Shown here piece after piece: positions 13,230 to 62,868 of a DNA stretch of 64,000 nucleotides. The notes under the pieces were generated by a model. That model did no database searches. It saw nothing but the letters and a program-made list of their open reading frames with translations, and was not told where the DNA came from. Both the position numbers and the translations under genes were made by a program. Numbering within the stretch: position 1 is the first letter of the stretch; each line of letters starts with the position of its first letter. This stretch comes from Patescibacteria group bacterium. GTDB taxonomy: Bacteria; Patescibacteriota; Minisyncoccia; Phycocordibacterales; PALSA-1337. The stretch is taken from contig JBBTRB010000003.1 of assembly GCA_038065395.1 (NCBI GenBank), positions 85,800 to 149,799 on the forward strand, given 5' to 3'.

Positions 13230-14507
13230 CTATATCACCTCGACGCCGAAGGTACGATTGAGAACTTCGATGGTCTTGCTGCCCACTCTGTCTTTCTCAT
13301 CGGTGATACCGTGTTTCTTTTGGAACAGATCGAGAGACTTTTTGGTACAGACGCCGAGCTTGCCCGTTCGAGGACAGTCGTTCTTGCTCATCGGTACCGG
13401 AGGATATACCCCATCGAGCATCAGTGCGGTCTGGAGTGCGAACACATCTATCCCCTCTGTACTCTGACCTGCAACCTCGTTCTTCCAGGTATGGGGTAGA
13501 GCAACGGTGTCATAGAAACGATCATAGTTCACTGCGCTCTCTGGATCGAAAAAGTCTGACATGCCGATATATGTCTGGTATGCGATATCTCGGATAGCGA
13601 GCGGTCGTATCTCTGCATTCATGAAATGTGGTTCGTATATATAGCCATACTCGATCAACATACTGGCGGCACCGACCGTGTTGTAAGGACCGATAGCGAT
13701 GAGCTCCTGATCTTCGACGATACCCGTACTCTCTGGAGCAAAATCACTGATCGGTGAGTATTTCGAAAGTCTACCGAAGATCGTACTCGCCAATGCACGT
13801 GTCGTCGTACTGTTGATGTATTGTTTCTCAGGTACATAGATAGAGAAACCGGAGTACGAGCCCGGCTCAGATATTCTACGGCGCGGATAATCATTGAGAT
13901 GGAGATGGAGCACGATGTCGATATCATTATCTTGTACCCATTTGTTGATGCCATAGAGACGGATCGCCACATTGTTCGGAGCAGTCACATGCTCGACCGG
14001 CGGAACACTGAGTTCGAACTTGCCTATTTCCATGAGCTCGATCGTTTCGGATTTGTGAGCGTCTTTCCAGGCAATGATCTCCTCCCAGTTATTCTTGAAA
14101 TATTCTTGGAACTCTGGTTTCCATGACACCGTATCGCGCGTCACGAAGACCTGGTAGCGTGGATTCTTGCTCAAAAGTGCCGAGATCTCATCGGCAATAG
14201 AGACAACCACATCTCGCTCTTTGACTACACCGAACTCGGTCCCTCCGAAGTCTGGCTCATGTCCAGGCACAAGGAGGACGCGGACCTGGGTACGAGGTCG
14301 TCTGCGATCGACGTCGTATCTGGAGCGGAGGTCATCGACCGTCTTAGCACGGCCAACCATGATGATCGATGCGATCTGGTCGCCCACCCGGTCAAACGCT
14401 GACATGATCGATCCGATCACACCGGGTGTCTGTGGCGAATAGTGATCGGCCACCCACGGTGCACCCAATAACAAAAGTGCTATGCTCGTCGCCAAGAGAT
14501 ATCTCAT
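13230..14507 (-). CDS. N-acetylmuramoyl-L-alanine amidase with C-terminal peptidoglycan-binding domain
   Basis: Signal peptide MRYLLATSIALLLLGA. LVPGHEPDFGG fits the MurNAc-LAA amidase type, and the C-terminal CPRTGKLGVCTKKSLDLFQKKHGI fits a PG-binding motif. Confidence 0.65.
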   Translation of the reverse strand: MRYLLATSIALLLLGAPWVADHYSPQTPGVIGSIMSAFDRVGDQIASIIMVGRAKTVDDLRSRYDVDRRRPRTQVRVLLVPGHEPDFGGTEFGVVKERDVVVSIADEISALLSKNPRYQVFVTRDTVSWKPEFQEYFKNNWEEIIAWKDAHKSETIELMEIGKFELSVPPVEHVTAPNNVAIRLYGINKWVQDNDIDIVLHLHLNDYPRRRISEPGSYSGFSIYVPEKQYINSTTTRALASTIFGRLSKYSPISDFAPESTGIVEDQELIAIGPYNTVGAASMLIEYGYIYEPHFMNAEIRPLAIRDIAYQTYIGMSDFFDPESAVNYDRFYDTVALPHTWKNEVAGQSTEGIDVFALQTALMLDGVYPPVPMSKNDCPRTGKLGVCTKKSLDLFQKKHGITDEKDRVGSKTIEVLNRTFGVEVI

Positions 14508-14526
14508 ATGTAATAGTATACCCCAT

Positions 14527-15468
14527 ATGCCCGAATTGCCCGAAGTACAAACAACCGTCAACGGTCTCAACCGTACGATCGTCGGCCTGCGCATTGCCAA
14601 TGTCTGGTCGAATTACGACAGTTCATATTTCAAAGATTCACAAACCATCAAAGATCCTGCATACTTTGTGGTTTTCAAAAAGATCGTCATGGGAAGTACA
14701 GTAGTGTCAGCAGAGAGACGTGCCAAGAATATACTCATCCATCTCGACAACGGTCAGACCATCCTTATCCACATGAAAATGACCGGTCACCTCCTCTACG
14801 GCACCTATAGGTTCGATGCCTCCCTGCCGAAAGATCCGTGGCAGCCTGTCGAGCCCGAGAGTCTCAAAGATCCTTTCAACCGTCACGTTCGCTTCCTGAT
14901 CTCCTTCGACGATGGCACGTCGCTGGCACTCTCTGATGTGCGCAAATTCGCCAAGGTCACGGCGAGCCCCTCGGCCATCCTCCACGAGTCAGAACATCTC
15001 CGAGAGATCGGTCCAGAACCTCTCGATCCTGATTTCACCTTCGAGGCATTCACCACACGCATCGACAAAAGACCGAATGGCAAGATCAAACAAGTTCTGA
15101 TGGATCAGAGTATCCTCGCCGGTATCGGCAACATCTATGCCGACGAGTCCTTGTGGCGCGCAAGTATCCACCCGCTCACTCAGGTAAAGTCTGTTTCGAC
15201 CCTTCAACGCAGAGAATTATTCCAAGCAATCCTCCAGACCCTTTCACGAGGAATTGATTTTGGTGGCGACTCCACATCTGACTATCGCAATATCGATGGC
15301 GAGAAAGGTTCTTTCCACGAGCAGCACTACGCCTATCGCATGACAGGTACTCCCTGCCAGAAAAAAGATTGCATCGGCACCATCACCCGCATCGTCCTTG
15401 GCGGCAGAGGTACACACTTTTGTAGTGAGCATCAGAAATACGTGAAGAAAAAGGCTGCACACAAGTAA
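14527..15468 (+). CDS. mutM: formamidopyrimidine-DNA glycosylase (Fpg/MutM)
   Basis: MPELPEVQTTVNGL N-terminus and a C-terminal zinc finger (C...C...C..C); ATG at 14527. Confidence 0.85.
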   Translation: MPELPEVQTTVNGLNRTIVGLRIANVWSNYDSSYFKDSQTIKDPAYFVVFKKIVMGSTVVSAERRAKNILIHLDNGQTILIHMKMTGHLLYGTYRFDASLPKDPWQPVEPESLKDPFNRHVRFLISFDDGTSLALSDVRKFAKVTASPSAILHESEHLREIGPEPLDPDFTFEAFTTRIDKRPNGKIKQVLMDQSILAGIGNIYADESLWRASIHPLTQVKSVSTLQRRELFQAILQTLSRGIDFGGDSTSDYRNIDGEKGSFHEQHYAYRMTGTPCQKKDCIGTITRIVLGGRGTHFCSEHQKYVKKKAAHK

Positions 15469-15525
15469 TTGCTGACCCTCTTCGCAGGCGCCACGTTCAA
15501 TACTTGTCACCCTCAGTTAATATAT

Positions 15526-15905
15526 GTCATCCCCGCGAAAGCGGGGATCCAGGATCATACCACTGACATGATAGATCCTTCCATTGAGGATTAGACTTCT
15601 CGATCAATTCAAGTTTCCACTTCCTACTCCACTTCTTAAGCTGTTTTTCTCTTGTCAAAGCAGCATTCACATCTATGGTTTCTTCAAAATATACTAATTG
15701 AGATATATCATATTTTTCAGTGAATCCAGGTATTATTTTGTGTATATGTTCGTATATACGACGTTCGAGATTATTGGTTACTCCAATATATAATGTTCCG
15801 TTTCTTTTGTTAGTGAGAATATAGATGTAGTAACTCATACCTACGATTGTAGCTAACTAACATACGGGATGCTAATCCTGGATTCCCGCTTTCGCGGGAA
15901 TGACA
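15526..15905. mobile_element. GIY-YIG gene bounded by 31-bp inverted hairpin repeats (candidate autonomous member of the hairpin-TIR repeat family)
   Basis: Left TIR 15526-15556 tgtcatccccgcgaaagcggggatccaggat; right TIR 15875-15905 atcctggattcccgctttcgcgggaatgaca, its reverse complement with two T/C changes. The subterminal aggatcaY is shared with the MITE-like copies at 35259 and 62618. Confidence 0.5.
15527..15838 (-). CDS. GIY-YIG nuclease family protein (YhbQ/COG2827-like URI domain)
   Basis: 103 aa: YIYILTNKRNGTLYIGVTNNLERRIYEH is the GIY-YIG core. The last 9 codons and the stop lie inside the left hairpin repeat. Confidence 0.7.
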   Translation of the reverse strand: MSYYIYILTNKRNGTLYIGVTNNLERRIYEHIHKIIPGFTEKYDISQLVYFEETIDVNAALTREKQLKKWSRKWKLELIEKSNPQWKDLSCQWYDPGSPLSRG

Positions 15906-18195: not shown

Positions 18196-20721
18196 TTATT
18201 TGAGATCTCCCCAATTCGCACCGACCGCCATCTCTGAGGTCAGTGTGATCCCTGCGATATCCTTGGGGTCAATGATCGATTCCATGATCGAGCGGATTTT
18301 CTCCCCTATTTCGTGTGCACGATCTTCGCGGATCTCATAGACCAGTTCGTCGTGCACCTGGAGTATCGGAAATGCCACATCAGTGAGACCTGCCTCCTTG
18401 AGCCAGCTGTCTACCTTGATCAATGCCAGCTTTACCACATCGGCTTCTGTCCCCTGGATCGGGGCATTGAAAGCCATGCGTTCGGCCTGTGCACGAATAT
18501 ACGGAATCTTGGAATTGATCCCCTCAAAATATCGACGACGACCAAAGAAGGTTTCTGTATACCCGGTACGAGCGGCGTCAGCCTTGACCTGGTCAATGTA
18601 TGCGGCGAGTGTAGAAAATGTCGCGAAATAATCATCCATGAATTTCTGAGCTTCGGCGCGATCGGTGCCGAGATTTTGTTTGAGCGCCATAACGCCCATG
18701 CCGTACAGGATGCCGAAGTTGATGACCTTGGCCTTGCGACGCATATCAGAAGTCACCTCGGTCAGTGGAACTTTGAATACCGAACTTGCAACCGACGTAT
18801 GGACATCTGTGCCATTTTTGAAAATATCGATCAACGTTTGATCCTTGGAGAGAAATGCTGCGATACGCAACTCGATCTGAGAATAGTCGAGTGACACCAG
18901 AGCAAAACCTTTCTCAGCTACGAACGCTTTGCGAATAGCTTTGCCCAGCTCGGACTTCACCGGGATATTTTGCAGATTCGGGTCGAGAGATGCCATACGA
19001 CCTGTCGTTGTCCCTGCGGGAATAAAGTCCGAATGCAGACGGTTGTTGCTATCGAGTTGTGGTGGGATAGCATCGATATAGGTAGAGAGGAGCTTTTGTA
19101 GTTCGCGATATTCGAAGATCATCGGAATGATCGGGTGCAGGTCACGGAGCTTCTCGAGTTCTGACTCACGTGTCGAACGTGCTCCCCCACTCGTCTTCTT
19201 CATGTTCTTGCCGACGAGTCCGAGCTTGTCGAACAGGATCTCACCGAGCTGTTTGGGTGAATTGATATTGAACTCAACCCCTGCGGCTGCAGTGATGTTT
19301 TTCTCCAAGAGTGCAAGTTCCTTGTGATATTTCTTGGAAAGATCTGCCAAGAATACTTTGTCGATCTTGACCCCACGCTCTTCCATCCGGTGCGTGATCG
19401 GGAGCAGGGGTAGCTCGAGTGTTTCGTATACGGTGCGGAGATTGCGCCTGTCGAGCTCTTCGAAGATCATTTTTTTGGCGACTTCATAGTCGTCAGTATT
19501 AGCGAAATTCAATATGTCTTCGAGTTGAGGATTGGTGGCATTGGAGTTTATGAGCCATAGTGCCACTCCGGTTTTCTCGATCTCTTCCTTGGAAACAAGA
19601 GGTGATTCTGCACCGCGGATCCCCGCCTGCGCGGGGATGACAGAAAATATGTCACCTTGCCCTCCCGTTTTGTCATCCCCGCGCAGGCGGGGATCTGCGC
19701 TCCCGACAGTAACTACACTCATTGCACTACTCTTCTTCCCTGCCAAGACATTTTCCAACCTTTGCCCGAGAGTTCGGAATTCCAACACATTCCACAACGC
19801 CTTTACCTTCTTGAGGTCAACGTTCTCTTTGAATGTCTTTTCTGGGAAGACGAAATCGATCGGTGCATCACGACGGATAGTCGCCAGCATCTTACTGAAC
19901 ATCGCCTCGTCTTTGTTATCTTTCAGGAGTTGTACGATACGTGGCGTGATCCCGGCTTTGATGAATGCATCTTCATGTCCTGCCTCAAGTTCCACATACA
20001 TATTCTCGAGTGTTCCGAATGAGGTGATGAGGATGGTCGCCGTCTTCTCGCCGACACCTTTGATCCCAGGAATATTGTCAGACGGATCGCCGCGAAGTCC
20101 TTTGTAGTCAGGGATGAGCTCTGGTCCAAAGCCAAATCTTTCCTGTACGGCTTTCTCGTCGTACATGATCGTATCTTTGATCCCCTTCTTGAGAGTGAAT
20201 ACTTTGACCTGCGTACCCGAGATCAGTTGCAACGTATCCATATCGCCAGAAGCGATGATGATCTCTAAATCTTCATCCGACCCGCGGATCCCCGCCTTCG
20301 CGGGGATGACAGGGTTCTTTTCCTCGCTTCCTGAATCTTGAATCATGAATCCCGCATTCTTGAGCTGCTCCACGATCGTCCCCAACATATCGTCAGCCTC
20401 AAAGCCTGCTTTGTCATAGATGGGAATATTGAGAGCCTCGAATACTTGCCGAGACGTATTGAGCTGACGGATCAGAGCATCATCGGTCTTTTGTCTACCC
20501 GCTTTGTATTCTTTGAAGACTTCATGTCGATGAGTCGGCCCTGCCAAGTCGTACGCAGCCACTATATAGTCTGGTTTGAGATCCTCAATGGTCTTGATCA
20601 GCATCGTTGAGAGTCCATATAGAGCTCCTGTCGGTTCGCCTTGTGCAGTCGAAAAGTCTGGCAATGCATGATATGCACGATGCAATATGGCATGCGAGTC
20701 GAGCAAAATGAGTCTTTTCAT
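18196..20721 (-). CDS. polA: DNA polymerase I
   Basis: 841 aa with an N-terminal 5'-3' exonuclease (GFEADDMLGT) and the C-terminal family A polymerase motifs (DYSQIELR, RRKAKVINFGILYG, QVHDELV). It carries repeat-encoded in-frame insertions. Confidence 0.9.
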   Translation of the reverse strand: MKRLILLDSHAILHRAYHALPDFSTAQGEPTGALYGLSTMLIKTIEDLKPDYIVAAYDLAGPTHRHEVFKEYKAGRQKTDDALIRQLNTSRQVFEALNIPIYDKAGFEADDMLGTIVEQLKNAGFMIQDSGSEEKNPVIPAKAGIRGSDEDLEIIIASGDMDTLQLISGTQVKVFTLKKGIKDTIMYDEKAVQERFGFGPELIPDYKGLRGDPSDNIPGIKGVGEKTATILITSFGTLENMYVELEAGHEDAFIKAGITPRIVQLLKDNKDEAMFSKMLATIRRDAPIDFVFPEKTFKENVDLKKVKALWNVLEFRTLGQRLENVLAGKKSSAMSVVTVGSADPRLRGDDKTGGQGDIFSVIPAQAGIRGAESPLVSKEEIEKTGVALWLINSNATNPQLEDILNFANTDDYEVAKKMIFEELDRRNLRTVYETLELPLLPITHRMEERGVKIDKVFLADLSKKYHKELALLEKNITAAAGVEFNINSPKQLGEILFDKLGLVGKNMKKTSGGARSTRESELEKLRDLHPIIPMIFEYRELQKLLSTYIDAIPPQLDSNNRLHSDFIPAGTTTGRMASLDPNLQNIPVKSELGKAIRKAFVAEKGFALVSLDYSQIELRIAAFLSKDQTLIDIFKNGTDVHTSVASSVFKVPLTEVTSDMRRKAKVINFGILYGMGVMALKQNLGTDRAEAQKFMDDYFATFSTLAAYIDQVKADAARTGYTETFFGRRRYFEGINSKIPYIRAQAERMAFNAPIQGTEADVVKLALIKVDSWLKEAGLTDVAFPILQVHDELVYEIREDRAHEIGEKIRSIMESIIDPKDIAGITLTSEMAVGANWGDLK
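19617..19695. repeat. inverted pair of hairpin repeats inside polA (CAGG-loop variant)
   Basis: ggatccccgcctgcgcggggatgaca (19617-19642) and tgtcatccccgcgcaggcggggatc (19671-19695). Read in the polA frame they give ADPRLRGDDK...VIPAQAGIRG. Confidence 0.8.
20286..20311. repeat. single hairpin repeat inside the polA 5'-3' exonuclease domain (GAAGGC-loop variant)
   Basis: ggatccccgccttcgcggggatgaca; in the polA frame it encodes VIPAKAGIRG. Confidence 0.8.
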
Positions 20722-24970: not shown

Positions 24971-25285
24971 GAGGTCTTCGTTAAGACAGACCTTGGATAG
25001 TGGTGTCAATTGATTTTTCGCTGTGTATAGCGCTAGGATGATATGCAGATATCGAGGGAAAAGAGTGACGATAGCATTTCAAGCTCATGGATCTCTAAGC
25101 AATATCTTATCGCGCGATGCGTTAAGCGAGGTAGAGTCCCGAGGATGGTTTCAGTACGGATCGCCGAAGCGAAACAACCAAAACGTCCTTAGAACTATAC
25201 CCAAACCTGGGAAGGCCATTGCTTAGAGGTTCATGATCTCAAATCGAAAGAGCACAGTGTAAGATCCTATCATATATAAAACTGT

Positions 25286-26296
25286 ATGTCAAGCACGTCC
25301 TCACAACCCTTACAGGAGACGAAGGAGGCGGGTTTTCTAGACCAGACCCTGCGTCCTTCGCGCTGGGACGAGTATATTGGGCAAAGTACGATCAAAGACA
25401 ACCTCCATATCCTCCTGACTGCCGCCAAAGAACGCGAACATCCCCCTGAACATATCCTTTTTTATGGTCCTCCAGGACTTGGCAAGACCACACTGGCACA
25501 CCTTATCGCCAAAGAAACCCAAACTCAGATCAAAGTCACTTCCGGTCCCGCTATCGTCAAAGTCGGCGATCTTGCATCTATCCTCACCAACCTCTCTGCA
25601 GGTGACATCCTCTTTATCGACGAGATCCACCGTCTCAACAAAGCCATAGAAGAAGTCCTCTACCCTGCTATGGAGTCGGGTGTACTCGATATCATCATCG
25701 GCAAGGGCCCTTCTGCACGTACGATCCAGCTCGACCTGCCAGCTTTCACCCTGATCGCGGCCACTACTCGTATCGCTATGATCTCTGCGCCATTGCGTTC
25801 GAGATTCTCTGGTGGCGTGTTCAAGCTCGAGTTCTATACCAATGAAGAGATCGGCAAGATCATCAAACGCTCTGCCAAGATCCTCGGTATCGAGATCCAC
25901 GAAGACGCCGTACATGAGATCGCCACTCGTTCCCGTTTCACCCCACGTACAGCCAACTATCATCTCAAGCGTTGTCGTGACTATGCACAGATCCACAAGG
26001 TTCCCCTGTCACGCGAAGTCGTCGAGAAGGCCTTGGCGATGCTCGGTGTAGATACCATGGGACTGACTGCTGCTGACCGTGAGATCCTCAAGGTGATCAT
26101 TACGAAGTTTGGTGGTGGTCCTGTCGGTCTCAACACGATCGCTGCGGCACTTTCGGAAGAACAAGCCACTGTCGAAGAGGTCTACGAGCCATACCTGATC
26201 CAACTCGGCCTCCTCGAACGCACTCCCCGTGGACGTATCGCTACTGACAAGGCTTATGCGCATCTGGGTGAAAAAGGTTCAGCGAAGTTGTTGTGA
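25286..26296 (+). CDS. ruvB: Holliday junction DNA helicase RuvB
   Basis: [28 protein letters not shown] and a winged-helix C-terminus. Confidence 0.9.
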
Positions 26297-32048: not shown

Positions 32049-32286
32049 AAGTATTCTTTATATTAAACAAAACTTTTCGTTATTAGGGATGTGGAAAAGT
32101 GGATAACGTGATAAAAAGGCTCAACGGTAAGGTCAAATGAGAAGATCTATTCTGGGTATAACCTGAAGATCTTCGGGTGGTGTGTGAGTAGGTTCTCATG
32201 GTGGTGAAGTTATACTATTCTTATTCCTGATTTGTTCCGTACTTATTATCGACTTTTCCTTGAGATAACCACAGGTTAATCCACAG
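32049..32286. promoter_or_regulatory. putative oriC segment: DnaA-box cluster in the dnaA-dnaN gap
   Basis: tgtggaaaa, agtggataa, ataaccaca and taatccaca (each 1-2 mismatches from TTATCCACA/TGTGGATAA), plus the AT-rich stretch tctttatattaaacaaaac. Confidence 0.5.
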
Positions 32287-33618
32287 TTATATCATCGACC
32301 GGATCTGTGTGACCTCCTGAGTCAGGACACTGTCGGACTTGAGTTCTTCTTTGACCTTCTCGTAGGAGTGGATGACGGTAGTATGGTCTCTTCCTCCGAG
32401 TTTCTCCCCTATTGAAGGGAAAGATATGCCAAAGTCTTCTCGGAGGATATACATGACCATTTGTCGTGGGCGTACGATCTCTTTGCGGCGAGTCTTGTCG
32501 TATATGCTTTGTTCGTCGATATTGTAGAAATCAGACACGATCTTGACGACTTCCTTCACCGAGACCATCTTTTTTGGTCGAGTGTTGTTCTTGAGGATGT
32601 TCTTGATCTCATTGAGGTTGAGCTCTTTGTTCTTGAGCTGTGTCTGGCAGGCCACGATGTTCACTACTCCCTCTATCTCACGGATATTGTCCTGGATCGA
32701 AGAAGCGAGGAACTCCATGAGCTCCAAAGGAAGGGTTATGTTGTGTGTGGCGCATTTGGTACGGACGATGGCCATACGAGACTCTTGGTCTGGTTCGGGG
32801 ATATCGACCGACATGCCGGCATTGAAACGGCTACGAACACGCTCCTCGAGGCCAGGAATGACGTTGGGGTGTTTGTCAGATGAGAAGATGAGCTGTCTCC
32901 CTGAGTCTTTGAAGGTATTGAATAGGTGGAAGAATTCTTCTTGGAATTTCTCTTTGCTCGAGAAGAACTGCACGTCGTCCATGATGACTACGTCGTATTT
33001 GCGATATTTCTCCTTGAAAGCCTGAGCCTTGCCTTCTTGGAGGGCACTGAGGAACTCGGAACCAAATCGTTCTGAAGTGAGGTAGTAGATCTTCTTGTTC
33101 GGGAATGCAGTCTTGATCTGATTGCCGATGGCTTGGATAAGGTGTGTTTTGCCACGACCAGGACCTCCATATATGAGGAGTGGGTTGTACATCTGGCCGG
33201 GACTCTTGATGACGGTCTGAGAGGCGGCATGAGCGAGCTCATTGAATGGTCCAACAATGAAATTTTCGAAGGTATAGCGAGGGTTGAGGTTGTTCTCCTT
33301 GTCGATATAGAAATCCTGCAGTGGCATGGCCATCGTCGGCATCATGACGGGCTTCTTGCCACGAGAAGAGTCGCCTTTTGAGCCGGATTCTTTCTCGATA
33401 ACATACTCGAGAGCTCTTACCTGTTCATTTGTCTGGCGCAAAATACGCAAAATCGAGTTGTGGAACTTCTTGACCAGCCATTCTTGAGTGAAAGAGTTAG
33501 GAACTCCGAGATATACTACCCCCTCTTCTTCTTTGATGATGCGAGTTTCTTTGAACCACGTGGAGAAGTTAGCCTGCGAAACAGCAGTTTCTATTTCTAC
33601 GAGAGCAGTCTGCCACAT
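32287..33618 (-). CDS. dnaA: chromosomal replication initiator protein DnaA
   Basis: GGPGRGKTHLIQAIGN Walker A, the DnaA signature and a C-terminal HTH; start taken at MWQTALVEIE. Confidence 0.9.
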   Translation of the reverse strand: MWQTALVEIETAVSQANFSTWFKETRIIKEEEGVVYLGVPNSFTQEWLVKKFHNSILRILRQTNEQVRALEYVIEKESGSKGDSSRGKKPVMMPTMAMPLQDFYIDKENNLNPRYTFENFIVGPFNELAHAASQTVIKSPGQMYNPLLIYGGPGRGKTHLIQAIGNQIKTAFPNKKIYYLTSERFGSEFLSALQEGKAQAFKEKYRKYDVVIMDDVQFFSSKEKFQEEFFHLFNTFKDSGRQLIFSSDKHPNVIPGLEERVRSRFNAGMSVDIPEPDQESRMAIVRTKCATHNITLPLELMEFLASSIQDNIREIEGVVNIVACQTQLKNKELNLNEIKNILKNNTRPKKMVSVKEVVKIVSDFYNIDEQSIYDKTRRKEIVRPRQMVMYILREDFGISFPSIGEKLGGRDHTTVIHSYEKVKEELKSDSVLTQEVTQIRSMI

Positions 33619-33747
33619 TTTGGAGTAGTCATGCATAAAATAGGTGCTATAAGTATATACCTGTTTATAGTTCTGCAAACTTGTGGAGGACGTAAAGTTA
33701 TGTTGATAAGTTGGGGACACGAAGTTTTGTTGTTTATTATGTCATTC

Positions 33748-33916
33748 GCGCCGGCGCAGGAGGCGTGTTGTCTCAACCCACGATCGACTTTGCTCACAAG
33801 AACTGAACTGTTCGCAAAGTCGTCTTTTCTCGGCGACGTCTAAGGTAGTCATTATTATCCTTGTGGACACGTCGCCTGCGAAGAGGGTTTCGTCAACACG
33901 CCTCCTGCGCCGGCGC
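33748..33916. repeat. three-stem structured element, copy A (23-bp perfect terminal inverted repeats GCGCCGGCGCAGGAGGCGTGTTG)
   Basis: Outer stem 33748-33770 with 33894-33916. The inner hairpins GACTTTGC...GCAAAGTC and GGCGACGT...ACGTCGCC are homologous to copy B at 49657-49808. Confidence 0.6.
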
Positions 33917-33951: not shown

Positions 33952-34086
33952 ATGTCAGTCACGTATCAACCAAAGAAACGCAAGCGCGCAAAGACACACG
34001 GCTTCCGTGTGCGCATGAAGACCACCTCAGGTCGCAAGGCTATTGCTCGCCGTCGTGCGAAAGGTCGCAAGCGCCTCGCTGTATAA
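33952..34086 (+). CDS. rpmH: 50S ribosomal protein L34
   Basis: Manual translation [44 protein letters not shown] (44 aa); below the ORF-track size cutoff. Confidence 0.8.
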
Positions 34087-35258: not shown

Positions 35259-35446
35259 TTGTCATCCCCGCGAAAGCGGGGATCCAGAGGCAAGGGCGTG
35301 GCTACTGACTTATATCTATATCATCACAAACTATTAGGGACCATCCCTGTAATTGCATGCCGAACCTGTCACGTTCAGCGAAGATATAGATTAATCGGAC
35401 TATATACTGGAAGTGATCCTGGATCCCCGCTTTCGCGGGGATGACA
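35259..35446. mobile_element. MITE-like element: hairpin TIRs around a 125-bp ORF-less core
   Basis: tgtcatccccgcgaaagcggggatccagagg ... atcctggatccccgctttcgcggggatgaca; the core is about 78% identical to the reverse complement of the 62618-62804 core. Confidence 0.6.
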
Positions 35447-41320: not shown

Positions 41321-41419
41321 AAGTGTAATTGGAACCTAGTAACTCGTAACTAGAAAAACACACACATGGCTTTTTCTAGTTACAAATTTCTTTTTACGAG
41401 TTACGGTGTTCATGTGATT
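41321..41419. repeat. 99-bp repeat, copy 1 (inside the split VirB4 gene)
   Basis: Character-by-character identical to 42049-42147. Internal inverted half-sites tagtaactcgtaactag / ctagttac...cgagttac; contains stops in the VirB4 frame. Confidence 0.85.
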
Positions 41420-42048: not shown

Positions 42049-42147
42049 AAGTGTAATTGGAACCTAGTAACTCGTAACTAGAAAAACACACACATGGCTT
42101 TTTCTAGTTACAAATTTCTTTTTACGAGTTACGGTGTTCATGTGATT
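42049..42147. repeat. 99-bp repeat, copy 2 (between the PrgI-like gene and the VirB4 N-terminal ORF)
   Basis: Identical to 41321-41419. Confidence 0.85.
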
Positions 42148-48834: not shown

Positions 48835-49644
48835 TTACTTCGCGAGCGCGTTCGCAAGTTCAATCCATTTGCTCACTGGTATATCTTCGGAACGAACTTT
48901 GGGATCAAGACCTGTCTGTTGCCATGCCTGTTCAAGAGTATTTATATCAAAAAGTGCTTCGAGGTTACGGATGGTGAACTTTCTTTTGTGTGCAAAGGCG
49001 GTTTTCACGATAGTGAAGAAACGACGAGTATGCTCGGAATCTGTGAAATGCGCGACACGATCCGTAGAGTTGATACCGCTGATCTCAAGTATCGCCGAGT
49101 CGACTGTTGGCGGAGGAGTGAACGCTCCTGGCGGTACGGTTGCAACGATCCGCGGTACACCGAAAGCTTTGACGGATACGGAGAGGATGCTCTCTTTGCC
49201 GTCACGAGCGACGATGCGTTCGGCGACTTCTTTTTGTACGAGGAGGACCATACGTTGCGGTCTTGGTGCATGTTCCAGGAATGATTCGAGGATCGCTCCG
49301 GTGATGTAGTACGGAATATTGGCAACCACGGCGTATCCCCCATCTTTCAGGCCTATGGTTGCACGGTCGAGCTCGAGGATATCTCCGTGGAGAAGCTCGA
49401 GTTTCCCTGAAATGATCTCGGTTGCATATTTTTCTCCGAGGAGTGCATAGGCCCGATCGTCTTTTTCTATAGCGATGACACGGTCACTCTTCTTGAGGAG
49501 TTCATCGGTCAACACTCCTGTACCAGGACCGATCTCGAGCACTGTCTCGTCTTGGACGATCTGTGATGCATCGACGATCTTACGCAGTACTCCTGGTGAA
49601 TTCAAGAAGTGTTGCCCAAGGGATTTTTTTGGAATTATTTTCAT
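48835..49644 (-). CDS. rsmA: 16S rRNA (adenine1518/1519-N6)-dimethyltransferase RsmA/KsgA
   Basis: KKSLGQHFL, VLEIGPGTGVLT and NIPYYIT motifs; ATG at 49644. Confidence 0.85.
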   Translation of the reverse strand: MKIIPKKSLGQHFLNSPGVLRKIVDASQIVQDETVLEIGPGTGVLTDELLKKSDRVIAIEKDDRAYALLGEKYATEIISGKLELLHGDILELDRATIGLKDGGYAVVANIPYYITGAILESFLEHAPRPQRMVLLVQKEVAERIVARDGKESILSVSVKAFGVPRIVATVPPGAFTPPPTVDSAILEISGINSTDRVAHFTDSEHTRRFFTIVKTAFAHKRKFTIRNLEALFDINTLEQAWQQTGLDPKVRSEDIPVSKWIELANALAK

Positions 49645-49656
49645 ATATAAGATGAG

Positions 49657-49808
49657 GCAGTATATCCTATTCCTCACCCACGATCAGCTTTGCTCACACT
49701 ACCTAAACCGTTCGCAAAGCTGTCTTTTCTCGGCGCCACCTTACAGGGATTATATATTCAATGTGGACGTGGCGCCTGCGAAGAGGGATCGGAACAGGAC
49801 ATACTGCC
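49657..49808. repeat. three-stem structured element, copy B
   Basis: Outer stem ggcagtatatcctattcctc / gatcggaacaggacatactgcc. Inner hairpins AGCTTTGC...GCAAAGCT and GGCGCCAC...GTGGCGCC. The single-stranded blocks cccacgatc, tcttttctcggcg and cctgcgaagaggg are shared with copy A. Confidence 0.6.
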
Positions 49809-49827
49809 CCATCTTGTCACACTTACC

Positions 49828-51747
49828 CTAAAAATCAATGAAGATCGCTTTGGCTCCCGTAACACCTGAATGTCCAGGATTGTGTTCGTGGATGAGGCTC
49901 TTCTGGATGTCAGCGATGAACTCCGATGGAGTGTTCACGCGTTGAGATCCATAGATCGTTCTGACCATAGCATGGCTCAGATACAGCTTTTTACGAGCAC
50001 GGGTCAGCGCTACATAGAAGATGCGACGCTCTTCTTCCTCTTCGGCTTGGCTGATATCGGCTTCGTCCATATGTTTGAGCGGGAACAGATCCTGTTCGAG
50101 CCCTGAGATGAATACATGGTCGAACTCCAGACCCTTCGAGGCGTGTATCGTCATCAGTTTCACAGCATTGATCTCTTTCTCGAGATCGTCTTGGTCACTG
50201 GCCAGTGCCGCATTACTCAAAAATGTTTCCATGCCCTCTTCTGGAGAGAGATGGTCATACTGTGTGGCTACCGATACGAGTTCTTGCACGTTGAGGATGC
50301 GCTCCTCGTCCTCACTTGTCCCTTCGCGGAGTGCACGCTCAAGACCGGTTTCTTGGATGACGAACTTCACCGCAAGCGACGGCTTTTTCTCTTTGCATTC
50401 ACGTGCAATATCATCGAGTAGTTTCCAGAAGTTGTTGATCTTGGCCTGCATCCCTGCAGGCAATGAAGCCTGGCCTCCGGCGGCGAGTTTGGTCAGAGTG
50501 ACTTTGCCGATGCCACGAGTCGGTACGTTGATACAGCGCATGATGTCACCCCAGGCTTCCCTGTTGAGAGCAGCTCGGATATAGGAGAGTACGTCTTTGA
50601 TCTCTTTACGTTCGAAGAACCTGGTGCCGACGAGTTGGTAGGCGATATTTTTCTTGATGAAGAATTCTTCCAACACGCGTGACTGGAAGTTCGTGCGATA
50701 GAGCACAGCGATGTCTTTGGGTTCAGAACCAGCTCGTATCAGAGATCTGACCTCGTCGGCGATCGTGCGCGCCTCGTCACTTTCGGTATAGTTGACCAAC
50801 AAAGATATTTTCTCTCCATGGTCGTTGTTGGTGTACAGAGTCTTCTTCCTGCGGAGAGTGTTCTTTTCGATGATGTCGTTGGCGGCAGTGAGGATCGTCT
50901 TGGTCGAACGATAATTTTGTTCGAGGGTGATGACGGTCGCATCAGGATAGTCCTTCTCAAAATTGAGGATGTTCTCGATAGTTGCCCCGCGCCAACTGTA
51001 GATGTTCTGGTCGATATCGCCGACCACGCAGATGTTGCGATGCTCAGCAGAGAGATACTGCGCGATGCGATATTGGACTTTGTTGGTGTCCTGATATTCG
51101 TCGATGTGAACATATTTCCAGATAGCAGCATATTTTTTGCGGACGTCTGCATGTTTGCCGAGGAGTTCAGAAGTCTTCAGAAGGAGATCATCGAAGTCGA
51201 GTGACTTCTCTTTTGCCATGACGGTGTCATATATCTCCCAGATCGCTGCAACCTTCTCTTCATAGTACCCACCTGCATGGTCAGCGAATGCTAGTCGGTT
51301 GAGCCCCTCGCCTTTTGCACGAGAGATCACCCCGATGATCTTGCCCGGATCGAATACTTTGGGATCCAAAGAAAGCTTTTCCAATGCCTCTTTGATCGCG
51401 CGACGCGAGTCGGAACGGTCGGCGATCGTGAAGTGTCGATGAAGGCCGAGGAGTACTGCATTTTCTCGGATAATATGGACTCCGAGCGAGTGGAAGGTGC
51501 TCACGAAAGGCTTACCTACCGCTGTGGTGCCAGACAACAGAGAGCCTACTCGGTCGCGCATCTCCTTTGCTGCTTTGTTGGTAAAGGTGATGGCTAGTAT
51601 CGCCGAAGGAGCGACTCCCTTCTGGATCAGGTGGAGGATACGATGAGTGATGACACGGGTCTTGCCGGCACCTGCACCCGCGATGATGAGCACCGGTCCA
51701 TCGGTTGTTTTGACGGCTTTATCTTGGGCATCATTGAGTCCATTCAT
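49828..51747 (-). CDS. UvrD/PcrA/Rep family ATP-dependent DNA helicase
   Basis: LNDAQDKAVKTTDGPVLIIAGAGAGKTRVITHRILHLI, DEYQDTN and the other SF1 helicase motifs. Confidence 0.85.
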   Translation of the reverse strand: MNGLNDAQDKAVKTTDGPVLIIAGAGAGKTRVITHRILHLIQKGVAPSAILAITFTNKAAKEMRDRVGSLLSGTTAVGKPFVSTFHSLGVHIIRENAVLLGLHRHFTIADRSDSRRAIKEALEKLSLDPKVFDPGKIIGVISRAKGEGLNRLAFADHAGGYYEEKVAAIWEIYDTVMAKEKSLDFDDLLLKTSELLGKHADVRKKYAAIWKYVHIDEYQDTNKVQYRIAQYLSAEHRNICVVGDIDQNIYSWRGATIENILNFEKDYPDATVITLEQNYRSTKTILTAANDIIEKNTLRRKKTLYTNNDHGEKISLLVNYTESDEARTIADEVRSLIRAGSEPKDIAVLYRTNFQSRVLEEFFIKKNIAYQLVGTRFFERKEIKDVLSYIRAALNREAWGDIMRCINVPTRGIGKVTLTKLAAGGQASLPAGMQAKINNFWKLLDDIARECKEKKPSLAVKFVIQETGLERALREGTSEDEERILNVQELVSVATQYDHLSPEEGMETFLSNAALASDQDDLEKEINAVKLMTIHASKGLEFDHVFISGLEQDLFPLKHMDEADISQAEEEEERRIFYVALTRARKKLYLSHAMVRTIYGSQRVNTPSEFIADIQKSLIHEHNPGHSGVTGAKAIFIDF

Positions 51748-51997
51748 AGAGTGAGTATAGTAGCACACCTCCCACGGACTCGAGGAATTATTTACACATC
51801 ATTATTTGACATTACGTCAAGTAATGATGATATACACATTTCAAATTGACAATTATTGCCCAACTGTTAACCTAGATAAGTTACCTCGTGGGTAAGTCCA
51901 GATAAAAGGCTTAGTAGAGCCATTTGTCGAAAGAAAATCCTCTTCCGGTATAGTTAGAAAATGTACAGACGGACATTGCGCTATACGAAGTCTTGTT

Positions 51998-60104: not shown

Positions 60105-60194
60105 CGTCATCCCCGCGAAGGCGGGGATCTGCGCACAAGAATAGACAAATATTAACAGACTAGGTCATGGATCCCCGCCTTCGCGGGGATGACA
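60105..60194. repeat. bare inverted pair of hairpin repeats (GAAGGC-loop variant) with a 39-bp spacer
   Basis: cgtcatccccgcgaaggcggggatc (60105-60129) and ggatccccgccttcgcggggatgaca (60169-60194). Confidence 0.8.
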
Positions 60195-62617: not shown

Positions 62618-62804
62618 TGTCATTCCCGCGAAAGCGGGAATCCAGGATCACTTCCAGTATAGAGTTGATGCAAGTCATATAAACAATGAATGTGAAGGGT
62701 TCAGCATTTACTCACAAGGATAGTTTATAGTAGTTTGCGATTATATAAATATAAGTAAGTAACCATGCCCTTGCTCCTGGATTCCCGCTTTCGCGGGAAT
62801 GACA
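62618..62804. mobile_element. MITE-like element: hairpin TIRs (T-variant) around a 125-bp core, inverted relative to the 35259 copy
   Basis: tgtcattcccgcgaaagcgggaatccaggat ... tcctggattcccgctttcgcgggaatgaca. Confidence 0.6.
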
Positions 62805-62868
62805 AAAAAAGCGAGGGTAACACATATAAAAAAATGTCTTGCAGATAGAGATTGTGGATAGCTCCAAT

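Follow-up and report, generated by a model that had tools for sequence, protein, structure and literature searches.

We identified, in the 64-kb stretch of DNA analyzed here (the window), a structured element that we read, with a probability of roughly 0.55, as a selfish, non-autonomous mobile element of Patescibacteria (CPR bacteria) that is mobilized via a folded single strand. Its conserved part is a three-way junction of about 110–120 nt within a whole element of ~160–180 nt, closed by a stem whose sequence is unique to each copy. The structure is maintained by compensatory changes, the element is polymorphic between relatives, some copies occupy coding sequences in frame, and copies decay neutrally in place. 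We propose that the junction would fold in a single-stranded intermediate (ssDNA or RNA), where it would be the recognition or active module for a putative trans-acting mobilization enzyme, and that the fold would matter for spreading and not for the adjacent gene. The closing stem would be perfect in a fresh copy, with a sequence different for each one, and the inserted copy would then decay, leaving survivors in what little intergenic space these compact genomes have. Counting against this reading, the copies have no transposase, reverse transcriptase or nuclease as a regular neighbor, and the ~34 invariant junction nucleotides exceed a usual protein-binding site and look more like the core of a ribozyme or riboswitch.

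Copies of the Element in the Window

Copy A (33748–33916) has the minus strand as its sense strand and lies between dnaA (32287–33636, minus strand) and rpmH (33952–34086, plus strand). Read in the sense direction, it begins with the 5′ closing arm GCGCCGGCGCAGGAGGCGTGTTG (33894–33916), which forms a perfect 23-bp inverted repeat with 33748–33770 and is missing from the orthologous spacers of relatives, followed by the linker ACGAAA and block 1, CCCTCTTCGCA (together 33877–33893), the block being invariant in 14 of 14 sequences. Hairpin P2 (33832–33876), the hairpin 2 of an earlier sequence-only reading of this DNA, has the 8-bp stem GGCGACGT/ACGTCGCC and a 29-nt loop, and leads into block 2, GAGAAAAGAC (33822–33831). 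Hairpin P3 (33786–33821), hairpin 1 of the earlier reading, has the stem GACTTTGC/GCAAAGTC, a tandem G·A internal loop (GC-GA-AC / GU-GA-GC) and a UUCNGUU motif in its apical loop, as seen in the alignment. Block 3, GATCGTGGG, and the linker TTGAGA (together 33771–33785) precede the 3′ closing arm (33748–33770), which pairs with 33894–33916. Blocks 2 and 3 are invariant in every copy, including the metagenome matches retrieved with a pattern lacking block 2 and the genome matches retrieved with a pattern lacking block 3.

Copy B (49649–49815, sense strand again minus) scores 140 bits with our covariance model R1 and sits between the stop of a UvrD/PcrA-type helicase gene (49828–51768, minus strand; stop at 49828) and the ATG of rsmA (48835–49644, minus strand; ATG at 49644). 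Its closing arms (49791–49815 and 49649–49673, minus strand) pair over 25 bp, with three G-U pairs on the sense strand, and enclose, on that strand, block 1 (49777–49787), P2 (49732–49776), block 2 (49722–49731), P3 (49686–49721) and block 3 (49677–49685). An identical copy B is present in L024, a second assembly of the same species.

The sequence-only reading counted two copies. Searching the window for the exact invariant blocks revealed a third, truncated one at 15472–15496 on the plus strand, CTGA-CCCTCTTCGCAGGCGCCACGT, which matches block 1 exactly. It begins a few nucleotides past the stop of fpg/mutM (14482–15468, plus strand) and ends at or just short of another repeat (15525–15905).

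Secondary Structure and Covariation

The features from which the structure was proposed are all there. The blocks given as shared on the plus strand (cccacgatc, gtcttttctc(ggcg) and (cc)tgcgaagaggg) occur in both copies; hairpin 1 pairs GACTTTGC with GCAAAGTC in copy A and AGCTTTGC with GCAAAGCT in copy B; the corresponding stems of hairpin 2 are GGCGACGT/ACGTCGCC and GGCGCCAC/GTGGCGCC, respectively, with compensatory changes between copies at five positions of the P2 stem; and the closing stem of copy A is the perfect 23-bp inverted repeat (33748–33770 / 33894–33916) that had been claimed. The closing stem of copy B is also present and a little longer than had been given: it spans 25 bp (49649–49673 / 49791–49815) and includes three non-Watson-Crick positions. 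On the minus strand these three read G-U and on the plus strand A-C, which explains why copy B is more stable by 10 kcal/mol when its minus strand is folded. Relative to shuffled sequence, the folds of both copies are much more stable (z from -7.5 to -11.4).

Covariation was counted over 14 sequences and 35 pairs, using RNAalifold and an explicit pair count. In the alignment, 94.3% of cells at these positions are paired, vs. 76% in shuffles and 37–48% when partners are slid, and 22 of the 35 base pairs show double (both-side) compensatory changes, among them 10 of the 12 pairs of P3. The covariation score was 0.555 vs. 0.186, and the observed value was reached by 0 of 500 shuffles. The proposal of selection on structure, made from two copies, is borne out by covariation in all helices over 14 copies.

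On the sense strand, the order of parts is a 5′ arm of 21–32 nt; CU-GA-A; CCCUCUUCGCA; P2, with an 8-bp stem and a ~29-nt loop; GAGAAAAGAC; P3; GAUCGUGGG; U-GA-AG; and the 3′ arm. Across the family, P3 has a stem of 8–13 bp, usually a tandem G·A internal loop, and a UUCNGUU loop. The strands joining the helices of the junction, CCCUCUUCGCA, GAGAAAAGAC and GAUCGUGGG, are invariant and, read from the alignment, 14, 10 and 12 nt long. Within the junction, CCC of block 1 pairs with GGG of block 3, and UCUU of block 1 pairs with AAGA of block 2.

With its invariant strands, the junction makes a promising candidate for a ribozyme or protein-binding fold of a new kind. One alternative to a mobile element is a small structured RNA gene, possibly a ribozyme, that rides on host transcripts and is freed by stem cleavage, e.g., by RNase III; the ~120-nt three-way junction would then be a trans-acting product, which may also template its own retro-mobility. 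Invariant junction strands combined with covarying helices are seen in catalytic and ligand-binding RNAs, and RNase III substrates are similar in size to closing stems of 21–32 bp, yet no Rfam family is matched even at E = 10, and we consider this alternative rather unlikely. At gathering thresholds, Rfam 15 found only four tRNAs in the whole window, and at E ≤ 10 copy A had no match and copy B two chance-level ones (14 bits vs. cut-offs of 85 and 113), so that the Rfam-style models to which the sequence-only reading had looked provide no matching family. Self-cleaving ribozymes (hammerhead, twister, hatchet, pistol, hairpin and HDV-like) likewise gave no Rfam match, and a hammerhead core was rejected because joining strands of 14, 10 and 12 nt do not fit one.

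Distribution across CPR Bacteria

Pattern scans of genome representatives and of JGI metagenomes returned 7 and 12 loci, respectively, the latter including several duplicates and two chance matches in GC-rich coding sequence (L013 and L015). Beyond the window, the scans yielded 11 loci, all of them in CPR bacteria. The total is 13 distinct full-length copies and, in L006/L008, one orthologous pair, all from CPR genomes or metagenomes. Each pattern fixed two of the three blocks, and only 14 sequences were so collected; the block left unfixed in each pattern is still invariant in the matches. Every full-length copy scores 118–154 bits with R1. When R1 was run over 206 kb, 42 kb and 96 kb with the aim of including diverged copies, it found no matches besides the known ones, and copy number is low, at most three per genome or window.

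Searches outside this group returned no relatives. Copy A had no blastn match in phage and plasmid collections; of three scans of viral contigs, one hit 10 loci, none fitting R1, and the other two hit none; and a profile search of four in-frame translations against 5.8 billion proteins gave two word candidates, neither of which scored. Nor did we find a paper on small mobile elements of CPR/Patescibacteria. On balance, we favor the view that it represents a family of structured mobile elements in CPR bacteria that had not been described before, which would mean that a structured selfish element can persist at low copy number in their tiny, dense genomes.

Comparison with Orthologous Sites

The dnaA–rpmH spacer measures 315 nt in the window vs. 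139–151 nt in genomes with DnaA identities of 97% and 92%, and the whole unit, including the closing stem, is missing from this spacer in L003, L001/L002 and L004 (DnaA 97%, 92% and 85% identical, respectively). The alignment breaks directly after the conserved ...AAAAAGGCAAG, whose other strand reads to us as a candidate -35-like hexamer for rpmH (TTGCCT; not in the promoter-scan list). The uvrD–rsmA spacer is 183 nt in the window vs. 7 nt in LFCL01 (L026; TAG CCATTTT ATG), where the element is missing, and the fpg–spoU spacers of the window and of L014 carry copies in opposite orientations.

A dnaA promoter-like site (TTTGCA-16-TATACT, 33652–33679, minus strand), whose hexamers fall in alignment columns that do not vary among four genomes, lies outside the element. 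Both this site and a DnaA-box-like site (33701–33709), the only one near copy A, lie between copy A and dnaA, and the conserved promoter-like site therefore places copy A upstream of the dnaA promoter. Copy A is accordingly not in the dnaA leader, and the cluster of boxes is elsewhere, at 32090–32285 in the dnaN–dnaA spacer. A dnaA leader or DnaA-box element was rejected on these grounds and by the absence from relatives.

The broader idea of a host cis-regulatory element for replication and repair genes (a riboswitch-like leader, an attenuator or a regulator site), of which the cis-regulatory leader in the sequence-only reading is one form, is already largely refuted and in our estimation very improbable. 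Strong structural conservation, and the many copies in or beside genes for dnaA, uvrD/pcrA, fpg, UvrB, RecG, DnaE and RecO, would fit such a role, but the element is missing at orthologous sites of close relatives, copy A is beyond the dnaA promoter, four copies lie in frame within coding sequence, the others flank heterogeneous genes, and the orthologous pair L006/L008 shows uncompensated decay. The position of copy A beyond the dnaA promoter also counts against the structured RNA gene, as does the lack of a conserved promoter upstream of the copy on its own strand.

Several further features of these sites were observed. A promoter-like site within copy A (TTCGCA-17-GATAAT, 33854–33882, minus strand) combines block 1 with AT-rich sequence of the P2 loop; several intergenic copies, and no in-ORF copy, have hexamers like these, and the site may provide an outward promoter toward dnaA or rsmA. 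In L025, whose RsmA is 78% identical, the uvrD–rsmA spacer contains a different structured insertion (L025:3420–3640, ~210 nt, z -4.2), and insertions seem to have landed in this spacer more than once. The LFCL01 uvrD/pcrA ortholog (L026:2087–3993) is divided in the gene calls into two ORFs (236 and 398 aa) that abut, which suggests a frameshift or pseudogene. The box cluster at 32090–32285 consists of three DnaA-box-like sites, near the minimum of cumulative GC skew, which changes at ~32–36 kb; the genes flanking the 32–36 kb region point toward it on both sides, which is unusual for an origin.

Closing Arms

The closing arms are 21–32 bp long, mostly perfect, and unrelated in sequence between copies (z about 0–2.5). 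Element ends without a fixed sequence are the opposite of ordinary transposon logic. L005 and L010, from one MAG, have cores that are 93% identical and arms that are unrelated, as do the L007 type and L019, from one metagenome, with cores 92% identical; overall, arm similarity and core identity are uncorrelated (r = 0.08). Gradual divergence of the arms was rejected, as their similarity does not track core identity and L006/L008 shows no hypermutation. The arms had no BLAST match to the rest of the sequence gathered, including the flanks of other copies. An origin as an inverted copy of the target flank was rejected by the empty sites and by the foreign arm-encoded peptides in UvrB, DnaE and RecG, and assembly from core fragments was rejected as well: look-alike 7–13-mers were seen, but k-mer sharing was not above that of shuffled controls (p about 0.3). 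The window contains no empty palindromes awaiting a core. No direct repeat that could be a target-site duplication was found beside any of 14 copies or in two filled/empty comparisons, and no common target sequence or conserved boundary bases were found among the copies.

Once in place, the arms change freely. Arm mismatches comprise 9 G-U vs. 7 A-C, i.e., no strand bias; the orthologs L006 and L008 have 4 differences in 163 nt, about the rate of the flanks, and the 4 include uncompensated changes in an arm and in P3; and arms are degraded in the older-looking copies L009 and L007 and in the outer parts of L016. Stems thus look perfect at birth and unconstrained afterwards. Since the arms are under no constraint in place and decay is uncompensated, the structure appears to serve spread and not the host. 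The same neutral decay stands against a structured RNA gene.

Similar cores with unrelated arms are compatible with two histories. One is gene conversion of the core between resident copies, with no new arms per insertion; a mosaic of this kind is seen between L005 and L008, which differ at 2 of 45 nt in P2 and at about a third of the 36-nt P3. The other, equally compatible with the observation, is that new arms are made at each insertion, which, if true, points to a novel enzyme activity. Under the mobile-element reading, the first arm might serve as template for the second, with the short CCC/GGG helix priming fold-back (fill-in) synthesis, a step that we offer as speculation. It is possible, though doubtful, that the element moves by an undescribed mechanism altogether, one that combines a catalytic or enzyme-recognized junction in single-stranded nucleic acid, a stem rebuilt at each insertion, and a preference for the transcribed sense strand of replication and repair genes. 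The stem would then be the fold-back fill-in of a one-sided tail, and entry would be, for example, through transcripts or through ssDNA exposed during DNA damage.

Copies in Coding Sequences

Long ORFs hold four of the 13 distinct full-length copies, on the sense strand, in the genes for UvrB (L007), RecG (L009), DnaE (L019) and RecO (L011), and in all four Pfam domains flank the insert on both sides. The four share one reading frame (E-PSSQA ... IVG-E), and all have a CCC...GGG core of 107 or 110 nt (2 mod 3) with no stop codon. Among the 10 intergenic copies, 8 belong to other core-length classes and all 10 have 1–5 stops in that frame; the other length classes acquire an in-frame TGA because of the invariant GGGUGA. 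From the open frame and the stop-free length class we infer that in-ORF copies are translated, with a predicted insert of ~55–60 residues, as a spliced element would escape such constraint. Within genes, copies would survive only when sense-oriented, in one frame, and in the stop-free length class.

That constraint is what chiefly bears on another alternative, a small self-splicing or protein-spliced intron whose closing stem joins the exon ends, which we regard as the least probable of the explanations considered. Like introns and inteins, the element sits in conserved DNA-metabolism genes, and its stem juxtaposes the flanks (the stem base of copy B is 12 nt from the uvrD stop and 4 nt from the rsmA start), but an open frame is needless if the insert is spliced, yet all four in-ORF copies are open, in one frame, and of the TGA-avoiding length class. 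Moreover, no gene split by a stop-bearing copy, or by any copy, was found among the loci examined, and there are no conserved boundary bases. The in-ORF copies also weigh against a structured RNA gene freed by stem cutting, which would destroy the mRNAs of uvrB, recG, dnaE and recO, and yet these copies are open and in frame.

For the mobile element, these copies mean that a translated insert is tolerated inside the essential replication and repair proteins DnaE, UvrB, RecG and RecO. Such inserts inflate protein lengths and can mislead the annotation of CPR genes and of “origin-region” motifs.

Other in-frame inserts were seen in the same material. RecG of L009 (residues ~395–460) and UvrB of L007 (~225–265) have second, unrelated in-frame inserts, whose DNA forms long hairpins (-94.5 and -70.1 kcal/mol, respectively, for the stretches folded); palindromic inserts that keep the frame may be widespread in these CPR proteins. 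Beside the L010 copy, an ndk ORF (L010:2008–2655) of 215 aa matches the 135-position NDK profile in two stretches, and this nucleoside diphosphate kinase ORF may carry an insert of its own.

Strand, Orientation and Neighboring Genes

The two tandem G·A motifs exist on the sense strand only, and the core helices contain 11 G-U vs. 3 A-C. These strand features support a folded sense single strand, RNA or ssDNA alike; for the structured RNA gene they count in favor. Orientation is biased as well. Among 14 copies (the 13 distinct full-length ones and the truncated one), 12 point the same way as their host or adjacent gene, and read-through would transcribe them, which would again suit an RNA; the other two, L010 and L017, are antisense to their neighbors, which would not. 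In the window, orientation follows the strand and GC-skew switch at 32–36 kb, being plus at 15.4 kb and minus at 33.8 and 49.7 kb. As co-orientation fits the gene strand and the skew switch alike, transcription and replication are indistinguishable as its source.

The in-ORF hosts are replication or repair proteins in four of four cases, and the three copies of the window adjoin dnaA, uvrD/pcrA and fpg. If replication and repair genes make up ~5–10% of a genome, four of four by chance would be unlikely. The genes next to the other intergenic copies are unrelated (mur ligase, mraY, map/ndk, secD, ABC transporter and spoU). Possible reasons for the association with DNA metabolism are that inserts are tolerated in these long proteins, that insertion occurs into genes active during mobilization of the element, or that there is a homing-like advantage, as for inteins.

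Comparison with Known Systems

Rickettsia palindromic elements (RPEs) are known as in-frame, translated insertions in ORFs (PMC10969869). Like them, the element is palindromic, non-autonomous, of similar size (~150 bp for RPEs), resident in a reduced genome, and present both between genes and in ORFs, four of which it occupies in frame and without stops. However, RPE families are similar along the whole element, including the palindromic ends, whereas here only the internal junction is conserved; the phylum is different and no sequence similarity is expected; and RPE copy number is higher, with 44 integrations into genes reported in R. conorii vs. at most three copies per genome or window for the element.

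Bacterial MITEs (Correia/NEMIS, ERIC, RUP and BOX) are, like the element with its 160–180 nt, small, non-coding, hairpin-forming, and present or absent between relatives, and they sometimes lend promoters or stop codons to neighboring genes. Unlike it, they have terminal inverted repeats that are family-wide and related to a parent IS, together with target-site duplications. What sets the element apart from MITEs is that conservation is confined to its interior, each copy having ends of its own. The sequence-only reading had set a structured element against a recently copied MITE; in this it was half right, for the element has neither the conserved terminal repeats nor the target duplications of a MITE, yet as an insertion it is mobile. 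Its suggestion of an ERIC-like repeat found no support: the 22-nt ERIC2 core had no match in the window with up to three mismatches, and the host, which DnaA homologs place in Paceibacterota/Parcubacteria near Taylorbacteria, is a CPR bacterium and not one of the Enterobacteriaceae.

In integron attC sites, IS200/IS605 ends and REP/REPIN sequences, as in the element, a folded single-strand shape is selected, the stem sequence is free, and there are features specific to one strand. A further alternative is accordingly a structure-specific DNA recombination or replication site, whose folded strand is recognized by a tyrosine recombinase or HUH enzyme. Free stem sequence with conserved structure is a hallmark of attC-type sites, the strand-specific features and the orientation that follows the strand switch at 32–36 kb fit it too, and the Y-shaped fold with sheared G·A pairs may resemble parvovirus ITRs and the folds of Streptomyces telomeres. 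Nevertheless, we think it quite unlikely, given that the element has no conserved basal boxes (R''/R') or R-box-like bases (RYYYAAC/GTTRRRY) at the stem base, that no integron integrase, Y1 transposase, other HUH or RAYT gene adjoins any copy, that copies are solitary and do not form cassette arrays, and that attC is conserved at the base and variable at the apex, the reverse of what is seen here.

Retron msr-msd loci similarly enclose internal hairpins in a variable closing inverted repeat (a1/a2), but the element has no adjacent reverse transcriptase, and in-frame coding copies are not a retron feature. Mitochondrial double-hairpin elements, GC-clusters and “byp” hairpins are small mobile insertions of compact genomes that also enter protein-coding genes, as the mobile element described here does; they are organellar, and their sequences are different from that of the element.

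Other Repeats in the Window

A second repeat family is present at 15525–15905, 19607–19706, 20282–20311, 35260–35446, 60105–60194 and 62618–62805. Its unit is a ~30-nt hairpin, TGTCATCCCCGCGAAAGCGGGGATCCAGGATCA, which we take to resemble the stem of a type I-E CRISPR repeat, and which occurs in inverted pairs 22–320 nt apart. Between the members of the 15525/15905 pair is a 103-aa ORF for a GIY-YIG nuclease (15527–15838, minus strand), and in L014 a hairpin unit of this family adjoins a copy of the element.

At 25082–25239 the window contains a long-stem element with a branched core and no sequence similarity to the family studied here; its arms of 22 nt flank 114 nt and are 86% complementary (fold z -4.7 and -5.3), and it lies between a PilB/T2SSE ATPase gene and ruvB (25286–26296), again a recombination gene. 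Finally, a perfect 99-nt direct repeat (41321–41419 / 42049–42147) has its two copies 728 nt apart, each just upstream of a minus-strand gene and each containing its own inverted repeats rich in GTTAC/GTAAC.
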